From positions 352,001 through 416,000 of the forward strand of contig CP147779.1 in assembly GCA_037308085.1 (NCBI GenBank): DNA of 64,000 nt, given 5' to 3'. The notes beneath the pieces were generated by a model. That model was given only the letters and a program-made list of their open reading frames with translations. It was not told where the DNA came from and ran no database searches. This DNA comes from Promethearchaeati archaeon SRVP18_Atabeyarchaeia-1 (lineage in GTDB: Archaea; Asgardarchaeota; Atabeyarchaeia; Atabeyarchaeales; Atabeyarchaeaceae). Positions 31,548 to 34,388 of this stretch are shown here, piece after piece. Position numbers and translations under genes: made by a program. Position 1 is the first letter of the stretch; every line of letters begins with the position of its first letter.

Positions 31548-32611
31548 ATGTGTAAGGTGGTTTCAGCTATGAAAGAGTCGAAGCTTCCGTATGATGTTAA
31601 GAGAGACTTGTTGAGAAAGACTCGTGATCAAACTGACAGCAGGCATGGGTGCGATCCGTCCAAGCGCCAGATCAACGAGTATGTTAGCAAGGGCGTGATC
31701 AACCTTGACAAGCCGGCAGGGCCTACTAGCCATGAAGTCGTTGCCTGGATAAAGAAGATCTTCGGAATAGAGAAGGCCGGTCACGGTGGGACTCTAGAGC
31801 CACTCAGTGCGCACAACTCCGCATCGAGCGGTGGGGTAATCCTAGGGTGACTGGACTTCTTCCAGTGACTTTGAGCAGCGCGACTAGGCTTGTTCAGGCA
31901 ATTCTGCCTGCAGGTAAGGAATATGTCTGCGTTATGACGCTTCACGGAGATGTCCCAGAAAAGAAACTAGTTGAAGTTTGTAACGAGTTTGAAGGACCGA
32001 TCTACCAGAGGCCACCACTTAGATCTTCCGTGAAGCGCATGTCACGGATAAGGACGATATACTACCTGCAACTTCTCGAGGTGGATGTGCGGAATGTACT
32101 GATGAAAGTCGGGTGCCAAGGAGGGACGTACATAAGAAAACTCTGCCATGACATAGGGGAGGCAATTGGCTGTGGCGCCCATATGAAGGAACTGAGGAGA
32201 ACTAGGACAGGATCGTTCAAAGAGGATGAGACCATGGTTTCACTTCAGGATGTCGTTGATGCCGTTCATTTCTGGAAAGAGAATGGAAACGAAGCCTTCC
32301 TCCGTAGGTCAGTCCAGCCAATGGAGAAGACCACGGAGCATTTGCCTAGACTCGTTGTCCGTGATTCTGCCGTAGACGCATTATGCCATGGGGCTCAACT
32401 TGCAGCACCTGGCGTACTTGAGGTTCATACCGGAATAAAACAGAACGCACTAGTCGGGATTTACACTTTGAAGGAGGAGATTGTCGCGCTGGCTCGAGCG
32501 CAGCTTGACACCGAAGGCATAATGAAGGCAGATAAGGGTATAGTGGCTACGATTGAACGTGTTATCATGGAGCCCGGAGTATACCCGAAACATGAGAAGC
32601 AGGCTACTTAG
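31548..32611 (+). CDS. cbf5: H/ACA pseudouridine synthase Cbf5 (TruB family), interrupted by a 41-nt BHB intron at 31798-31838
   Basis: Two ORFs offset by 2 nt in frame. Removing 31798-31838 restores GHGGTLDPRVTG. Also LDKP.GPTSHEV, KEY, GTYIR and a PUA domain. Confidence 0.95.
31798..31838 (+). other. Pre-mRNA BHB intron in cbf5
   Basis: GGGA/TCCT outer helix, CTCT/GGGG central helix, bulges AG^A and TA^A, intron helix GCCACTC/GAGCGGT. Confidence 0.92.
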
Positions 32612-33280: not shown

Positions 33281-33377
33281 GACACCTTAGCTAGAAAATG
33301 CGCACGACGCAAGCGATCCTGCAACGCACTAGCCGACACAGTTAAATGCCTACTCGAACCTTAAGAAAAACGTAAGT

Positions 33378-33498
33378 GCCGTGGTAGCCAAGTCTGGTTA
33401 AGGCGCGGGATTGGAGATCCCGTTCCCTTTTGGGAGCGTCGGTTCAAATCCGGCCCATTTCACGTGGTAAGCACACCATGTGGAGGCTAGCGGCGCCA
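33378..33498 (+). tRNA. tRNA-Ser(GGA) with a BHB intron in the acceptor stem (68/69: 33458-33490), CCA encoded
   Basis: CGGGA-TT GGA GA-TCCCG with a long variable arm. The 3' acceptor strand CCA^CGGC-G-CCA pairs with GCCGTGG only after intron removal. Confidence 0.92.
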
Positions 33499-33926
33499 TG
33501 CCCAATGCATGCTGAAGGACCGACATCTCCCCTGAAACCATCATGAACCGGAGTGCCCCTGCTTTCTTTTCCGCATACCCCTGTTGACGAGCTCCAGGTC
33601 CCCTGTCTCGTGTGCTCCAGAATTCAGTCGCTCAGCAACCTCAATCGCACGAATATGGCGATTGATATCTCATGCACCTTCCGATGGTTACGTAAAAGTG
33701 CATGCCAGAACCATTTCAGAAACGATTTTCGGATTGGATGGGTCGTAAGTCCGATGGATATAAAGCTCGCGAATGGAAAATGCTTAAATACTTATAATTG
33801 GCTTTCTGGTTTGCACAATCGTTCCATGCCGCGGAGAATCGGCAGGTCGATTTGCTTGGCAATGATTATATACCGATTGATCCCTAGTGGAGCGAAGCTG
33901 ACGCAGTTAATAGAGAGTGTTGCAGT

Positions 33927-34388
33927 ATGTCTGAGGGGTTTAGACACATCGTAAGAATCGCTGGCACGGATCTCCAGGGTTCAGAGAAGTTGCCCTATGC
34001 GCTGGCAAGTATCGAAGGAGTCAGCACCAGAACGGCCTACGCGGCCATCAAGATAGCTGGGCTAGACCCAGAGCTGAGGGCAGGATATCTGTCTGAGACT
34101 CAAGCCAAGGAACTTGAGAAGATAGTACAGGATATGTCCAAGATCGGCATACCAAGCTGGTTGCTCAACCGGCGGAAGGATGTAGCAACGGGGAAAGACA
34201 CCCATGTAATCGGTGCCGACTTGAAGCTGGCAAACAGGACCGATATCGAAAGGATGAAGGCAACAAAGAGTTGGAAGGGAATCAGGCACGCGCTGGGACT
34301 GAAGGTAAGAGGGCAGCATACGAGAACAACTGGCAGAACAGGGCAGACTGTTGGAGTAAGCAAGAAGAGAGCGAGAGCAGCGAAATAG
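33927..34388 (+). CDS. rps13: 30S ribosomal protein uS13
   Basis: IP.WLLNRRKD and GLKVRGQHT.TTGR. Confidence 0.97.
   Translation: MSEGFRHIVRIAGTDLQGSEKLPYALASIEGVSTRTAYAAIKIAGLDPELRAGYLSETQAKELEKIVQDMSKIGIPSWLLNRRKDVATGKDTHVIGADLKLANRTDIERMKATKSWKGIRHALGLKVRGQHTRTTGRTGQTVGVSKKRARAAK

Follow-up and report, generated by a model that had tools for sequence, protein, structure and literature searches.

In the complete genomes of Atabeyarchaeia and Freyarchaeia, introns have been reported in 92–95% of the tRNA genes, often at non-canonical positions (Valentin-Alvarado et al. 2024, Nat Commun, PMC11291895). A census of Asgard archaea that covers Atabeyarchaeia (bioRxiv 10.64898/2026.10.13.758758) places the introns at canonical BHB motifs and describes repeated gains, including 6 on the Atabeyarchaeia stem branch; acceptor-stem cases are pooled there as “other”, without description. 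The acceptor stem has been named as a location of archaeal tRNA introns (PMC12397907), and insertion at position 3/4 in Thermoproteales is presented as an “extreme case” (Sugahara et al. 2008, as cited in PMC4090602). As far as that citation describes the Thermoproteales introns, the intron analyzed here would share with them protein-mediated splicing at a BHB motif located off position 37/38, residence in the acceptor stem, and a two-subunit EndA of broad specificity. The differences are that the present intron interrupts the 3’ strand of the stem (68/69) rather than the 5’ strand, and that its host is a mesophilic Asgard archaeon rather than a hyperthermophilic crenarchaeon.

The gene in question encodes tRNA-Ser(GGA) of Promethearchaeati archaeon SRVP18_Atabeyarchaeia-1, whose genome, obtained from wetland soil, is a single contig of 2,808,651 bp; the window, that is, the whole 64,000-nt stretch of DNA that was analyzed, comprises bases 352001–416000 of this contig. 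The closest public relatives are “Candidatus Atabeyarchaeum deiterrae” Atabeyarchaeia-2 (CP147780.1) and Promethearchaeati MAG LC30. The very same feature is listed in Supplementary Data 4 of PMC11291895 (tRNA 8, Ser GGA, 385378–385498, intron 385458–385490, 81.9 bits, 1 intron), and these coordinates coincide with the window positions of the gene and the intron given in Table 1; thus, the intron is already known at the annotation level. The Atabeya-2 orthologue is included in the same supplementary file. That study covers the overall abundance and the non-canonical positions of the introns and leaves the placement of this one in the acceptor stem, its 8-nt exon and its structure without comment. 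In the tables published for three complete Asgard genomes, all other 3’ exons are at least 14 nt long, so that the Ser(GGA) locus is the only annotated 3’-acceptor-strand intron in the three genomes, in line with the original prediction, made from the sequence of the window, that introns at such a position are very rare. What the present analysis contributes beyond the published table is only the structural competition with the T-arm and the outlying helix lengths.

Table 1 Coordinates of the tRNA-Ser(GGA) gene, its intron and the predicted BHB elements in the window
Feature	Window positions	Strand	Description or basis
TTAAATG element	33342–33348	+	30–36 nt upstream of tRNA-Ser(GGA); present in 6/6 orthologues
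tRNA-Ser(GGA) gene, insert included	33378–33498	+	121 nt; published annotation 385378–385498
Exon 1	33378–33457	+	5’ acceptor strand, D-arm, anticodon arm (GGA), long variable arm, T-arm, positions 66–68 (CCA)
BHB intron, between tRNA positions 68/69	33458–33490	+	33 nt; BHB geometry and restored cloverleaf; equals tRNAscan-SE 385458–385490
Exon 2, CGGCGCCA	33491–33498	+	8 nt; acceptor positions 69–72, discriminator G73, gene-encoded CCA
Outer helix h, 2 bp	33450–33451 (CC, T-stem positions 61–62) with 33492–33493	+	C33450-G33493, C33451-G33492
Central helix H, 5’ strand GGCC	33452–33455	+	tRNA positions 63–66; pairs with 33485–33488
5’ bulge CA^U	33456–33458	+	holds 5’ splice site; BHB geometry
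Inner helix h’, 9 bp, with 8-nt loop	33459–33484	+	TTCACGTGG (33459–33467) with CCATGTGGA (33476–33484); two G-U pairs
Central helix H, 3’ strand GGCT (GGCU)	33485–33488	+	4/4 pairs, one G-U
3’ bulge AG^C	33489–33491	+	holds 3’ splice site; BHB geometry

The reading of the gene is straightforward once the insert is taken out (Table 1). The T-stem ends at 33454 and is followed by the trinucleotide CCA of positions 66–68 (33455–33457); removal of 33458–33490 joins the ends ...CCGGC-CCA and CGGC-G-CCA and restores a perfect tRNA-Ser, which defines the intron position as Sprinzl 68/69. The predicted spliced junction is ...CCGGCCCA followed directly by CGGCGCCA, and ARAGORN folds the 88-nt spliced product without a flaw as a class II tRNA-Ser(GGA), in which GCCGTGG/CCACGGC forms an acceptor stem of 7 bp. 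In every base, the 3’ end predicted for it matches the uninterrupted 3’ ends of tRNA-Ser(UGA) from Woesearchaeota and Methanosarcinales. With default ARAGORN and Rfam, the gene call is shortened to 33378–33463, with a mismatched acceptor stem. The difference is reflected in the scores: 81.9 bits for the spliced form (tRNAscan-SE, published table) vs 44.8 bits for the shortened unspliced gene (Rfam). In tRNAscan-SE 2.0, candidates are extended by 60 nt to catch introns near the ends of the gene. The locus thus shows where tRNA detection at default settings can fail: ARAGORN and Rfam cut the gene short, and tRNAscan-SE 2.0 calls it correctly.

The original prediction had placed a BHB intron at 68/69, with an 8-nt 3’ exon, and the coordinates and the restored tRNA-Ser bear this out. 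Its statement that excision would yield CCACGGC-G-CCA, complementary to GCCGTGG and carrying the serine discriminator G73, agrees with the ARAGORN fold. The GGCC/GGCT helix, the CA^T and AG^C bulges and the 9-bp hairpin that it named are all present at the positions given for them; the 2-bp outer helix went unmentioned in that description and completes the motif.

Upstream of the gene, the TTAAATG element probably represents a TATA-like promoter box, judging from its position and conservation. A conserved A-rich, GAACCTTAGAAAA-like stretch lies 3’ of it, at about −22 to −10 upstream of the tRNA; together, the two would probably correspond to a TATA/BRE promoter and the first part of a short leader. 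Comparison of the orthologues revealed no conserved leader or trailer element beyond the promoter box, and the trailers have no element in common. The two exons are collinear, on the + strand and 33 nt apart, with a single conserved upstream element, which rules out a split or permuted tRNA gene. A group I or group II self-splicing intron is ruled out as well, the insert being only 33 nt long and the Rfam scan of the window at gathering thresholds yielding tRNA only.

EndA cuts after the second nucleotide of each bulge of a BHB motif. Cuts at these points in the Ser(GGA) precursor would produce both the boundaries called by tRNAscan-SE and a perfect mature tRNA. The intron falls in the strict hBHBh’ class (Marck and Grosjean 2003, in the definition quoted in bioRxiv 10.64898/2026.10.13.758758), with 4/4 pairs in the central helix and two 3-nt bulges on opposite strands; the outer helix, at 2 bp, has the minimum length that the definition allows, and the inner helix spans 9–10 bp. 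In the folding of the precursor, the pairs of the inner helix have probabilities of 0.85–1.0. When the intron was shuffled, a strict hBHBh’ motif at the boundaries was recovered in 277 of the 100,000 shuffles (0.28%), and one with an inner helix of at least 7 bp in 3 of the 100,000; when the same intron was placed at 77 points of the mature tRNA, the strict motif formed at the real site only. The BHB motif at 68/69 is far beyond chance.

Comparative evidence comes from BLAST searches over 41 related genomes, to which pattern scans added three distinct metagenome variants. The full 121-nt gene with the insert was found in just two other members of the family among the 41 genomes (G001 and G002, with 89% and 86% identity, respectively); in G006, which belongs to another family, the Ser genes are uninterrupted. 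The intron site is identical in all six distinct orthologues, of which three come from genomes of the family and the other three from metagenome contigs. In the alignment of the six sequences, the exons are nearly invariant and the intron loop is different in each sequence, with the helices kept. The CCA is gene-encoded in four of the five orthologues in which the 3’ end is on the contig, and reads CCT in G002. Across the six sequences, 96.7% of the helix cells are paired, compared to 32–54% for slid controls; the central helix is paired in 100% and the inner helix in 94% of the cells, and both outer pairs are invariant C-G in 6/6. In two pairs of the inner helix, both partners have changed, and two orthologues have G-C in place of the central G-U pair. 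In the covariation control, 113 of the 500 shuffles reached the observed score, and with only six sequences, closely related ones at that, covariation supports the structure without proving it. The case for the structure was therefore built on the geometry, the slid controls and the shuffle null, not on covariation statistics.

The distribution of the interrupted form was assessed with a covariance model that consists of the T-arm, the intron and the 3’ exon and was run with strict filters on 151 Asgard genomes. The form is present in 3/3 genomes of the family, the genome analyzed here included, and in 0/148 other Asgard genomes, a count that pertains to relatives of this intron inasmuch as the model is Ser-specific and unrelated 68/69 introns elsewhere may have escaped the filters. 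No presence/absence polymorphism was detected within Asgard, the exact uninterrupted junction being found just in unrelated archaea, in Ser(UGA) genes. Most likely, the intron was gained once, in the ancestor of the Atabeyarchaeum family.

The interrupted gene is the sole Ser(GGA) gene of this genome. The published table contains one Ser(GGA) gene, and searches of the whole 2.8-Mb genome revealed neither a second GGA anticodon arm nor a contiguous copy of the 3’ end. Further copies of the intron, with up to 6 mismatches, are likewise lacking genome-wide, and a transposition model that would entail intron copies elsewhere was rejected. In this respect, the locus differs from the Thermoproteales systems as they are presented in PMC4090602, no copying of the intron between tRNA genes being seen at this threshold; the Asgard preprint likewise concludes against such copying in Asgard archaea (bioRxiv 10.64898/2026.10.13.758758). 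Of the 73 serine codons in six housekeeping genes nearby, 22 are UCU or UCC. Two candidates for a second gene were considered and rejected: the Ser-like gene at 637149–637349 (−) is a Ser(CGA) gene with three introns, and the “Ser(gga)” called at 714679–714780 by ARAGORN with the intron option is the Pro(GGG) gene of the published table.

The Ser(CGA) gene, which lies outside the window, is itself unusual: it is 201 nt long and contains inserts in the D-loop (~45 nt), the anticodon region (~26 nt) and the T-loop (~40 nt), its acceptor stem is that of Ser(GGA) with an uninterrupted 3’ end, it has partial orthologous matches in G001 and G002, and it is missing from the 40-gene table (Supplementary Data 4, PMC11291895). 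Counts of tRNA genes in this genome depend on the method: 9 with default ARAGORN, 22 with its intron option, many of them mis-typed, and 40 in the published tRNAscan-SE/R2DT table. The published table lacks several expected isoacceptors, for example, Asp, Ile, Thr(GGT/CGT), Val(GAC) and Leu(GAG), which suggests that there are more heavily interrupted genes yet to be annotated.

The enzymes of the pathway are encoded in the same genome. There are two EndA paralogues (PF01974, 104.5 and 65.5 bits) and one RtcB ligase (PF01139, 583.5 bits), the EndA paralogues being located around 202619–202873 on the − strand and 624258–624518 on the + strand of the genome; judging from the domain matches, the pair of EndA paralogues is consistent with the (alpha-beta)2 enzyme type, which cleaves non-canonical introns.

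Given these findings, we consider it highly probable that the locus is a functional, single-copy tRNA-Ser(GGA) gene with a 33-nt archaeal intron at 68/69 that is spliced by proteins; going by the sequence, the intron is almost certainly spliced, and the route would be the ordinary EndA/RtcB pathway. A promoter some 30 nt upstream would drive transcription of the precursor, in which C66 and the T-stem 3’ strand would pair with GGCU of the intron to form the strict hBHBh’ structure, stabilized mainly by the unusually long intron hairpin of 9 bp. The two-paralogue, (alpha-beta)2-type EndA would then cut at CA^U and AG^C, RtcB would ligate A68 to C69, and the T-arm and the 7-bp acceptor stem would fold to give the mature tRNA with G73 and the encoded CCA.

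The shortened tRNA with a mismatched acceptor stem that default ARAGORN and Rfam report could be taken to mean that the gene is a pseudogene, or that the insert is a scar of integration or repair, with another tRNA decoding serine UCU and UCC. We regard this as extremely improbable. The exons are near-invariant in the six orthologues while the intron loop drifts; the strict BHB geometry occurs exactly at the boundaries that restore the tRNA; and nowhere in the 2.8-Mb genome is there another Ser(GGA), a duplicate of the 3’ end or a further copy of the intron. The acceptor pairing of the unspliced form is not conserved (in G002, there would be 4/7 pairs), and a 33-nt insert without flanking repeats is unlike the product of site-specific integration. 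This reading is largely refuted. The original prediction had itself named an integration scar combined with an intact Ser(GGA) gene elsewhere as the outcome that would speak against it, and the genome contains no intact second gene, no copy of the 3’ end and no signature of integration. For the same set of observations (no att repeats, no second 3’ end, an insert of just 33 nt, no integrase), an attB site or integration scar was rejected as an identity of the feature. A different connection to mobile elements, also raised in the original prediction, is that selection retains the intron for its disruption of the tRNA 3’ end, which serves integrases as attB. The idea is the hypothesis of Randau and Soll (2008) that disrupted tRNA genes resist integration, and it has been published for archaeal tRNA introns and split tRNAs (in the passages of PMC4090602 and PMC4033280 that deal with it); as presented there, it was made for introns and splits near the anticodon loop and T-arm that lie over known SSV att sites, whereas neither the present gene nor its lineage has a known integrase target. 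The lineage does have tyrosine-integrase elements (PMC11529989), and the intron is conserved across the family. Against this stand the absence of any integrase, att-like repeat or mobile element near the Ser(GGA) gene; the 18 described integrated elements of Atabeyarchaeia, for which no tRNA-gene target is reported (PMC11529989), the single att motif given in that paper being an 11-bp AT-rich sequence; and the Asgard preprint, in which hardly any tRNA gene, with or without an intron, has evidence of mobile elements nearby. The locus is flanked by housekeeping genes (cmk, cbf5 and a methyltransferase to one side; rps13, rps4, rps11 and rpoD to the other), and neither an integrase nor a homing endonuclease is encoded next to it. 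Furthermore, a run of 80 nt that takes in the anticodon and T arms is left contiguous in the gene, so that disruption would be limited to att sites that span 68/69. Protection of the attB site thus finds no support at this locus, and we consider it very unlikely as the reason for which the intron is kept.

The position of the intron raises the separate issue of the order of processing, and here the competing folds of the precursor come into play. The central helix takes up three nucleotides of the T-stem 3’ strand plus C66; it follows that formation of the BHB unfolds the T-stem and that the BHB and mature folds are mutually exclusive. For naked RNA at 37 °C, the predicted minimum free energy (MFE) fold, with a non-native pairing between the D-arm and the intron, has −56.9 kcal/mol, a cloverleaf with the full 7-bp acceptor stem formed across the intron has −48.6 kcal/mol, and the strict BHB fold has −45.7 kcal/mol. 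The BHB is absent from the MFE fold of the naked precursor, the pair probability in the central helix being about 0.001, and the gap between the BHB and MFE folds, 11.2 kcal/mol, exceeds that of every other gene in the set of 12 single-intron tRNA genes from this genome (1.6–7.3). In the same set, the Ser(GGA) intron is an outlier in helix length, its outer helix (2 bp) being the shortest and its inner helix the longest by a wide margin (9–10 vs 0–6 bp). The U-to-C change in the central helix of two orthologues makes for a better BHB pair and would break the D-arm/intron pairing of the MFE fold; by strengthening the one and disrupting the other, it favours the BHB as the selected structure, and the MFE pairing, being non-native and broken in two orthologues, was not counted against splicing. 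We infer that the length of the hairpin would make up for the weakness of the outer helix and that binding of the enzyme would capture the BHB conformer.

These features could be read to mean that the 3’ position of the intron forces splicing to precede the action of RNase P, 3’ trimming and charging, and so makes it a checkpoint or regulator for the sole decoder of UCU and UCC. The original prediction likewise had splicing precede end maturation and charging. The part of this that concerns charging is trivially true, G73 and the CCA being on exon 2, which makes charging impossible before ligation; the mutual exclusion of the BHB fold and the mature T-arm/acceptor fold, and the unusually long inner helix, unlike those of the other single introns of the genome, also point in this direction. 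The predicted energies speak differently, in that the fold with the full acceptor stem across the intron (−48.6 kcal/mol) is placed below the strict BHB fold (−45.7 kcal/mol); with the acceptor stem able to form across the intron, and the two folds only some 3 kcal/mol apart, it is in principle possible for RNase P to act before splicing. The precursor also carries no conserved leader or trailer element past the promoter box, and nothing sets this reading apart from neutral persistence. On balance, a checkpoint of this type appears unlikely. A broader version, in which 3’-acceptor-strand introns are a distinct functional class, with the G73/CCA micro-exon and the exclusion of folds forcing splicing before end processing and aminoacylation, and with the long hairpin a product of convergent selection rather than of chance tolerance, strikes us as quite unlikely; if true, such introns would give a checkpoint, or protection from integration or cleavage, for a single-copy essential decoder. 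The account that we prefer is the functional gene whose intron is removed by EndA and RtcB, with the intron probably persisting because a spliceable motif happens to form, as one of many in an intron-saturated lineage, and having no dedicated function.

Outside its own lineage, the meaning of this intron is small: the gene-level annotation is public, and no new kind of system is opened. It is a clean, conserved example of an archaeal tRNA intron far from the anticodon loop, through which the last eight bases of an essential single-copy tRNA would be spliced on. The precursor is also a potential substrate for studying how an Asgard EndA deals with a BHB in competition with the T-arm, and whether splicing or end maturation comes first.

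Two more features of the neighbourhood were noticed. Directly downstream of the tRNA, a 133-aa ORF (33553–33954, +) overlaps the start of rps13 and has no Pfam match; possibly, it is a spurious reading frame of the tRNA-rps13 spacer. On the other side, at 31798–31838 (+), cbf5, which encodes a TruB-family pseudouridine synthase, contains a 41-nt strict-BHB intron whose central helix, CTCT/GGGG, lies between the bulges AG^A and TA^A; the outer and inner helices have 5 and 3 bp, respectively. The BHB intron of cbf5 is classically known from Crenarchaeota. Removal of the intron merges the ORFs 31548–31850 and 31847–32611 into one encoding a 340-aa protein with an intact GHGGTLDPRVTG motif.
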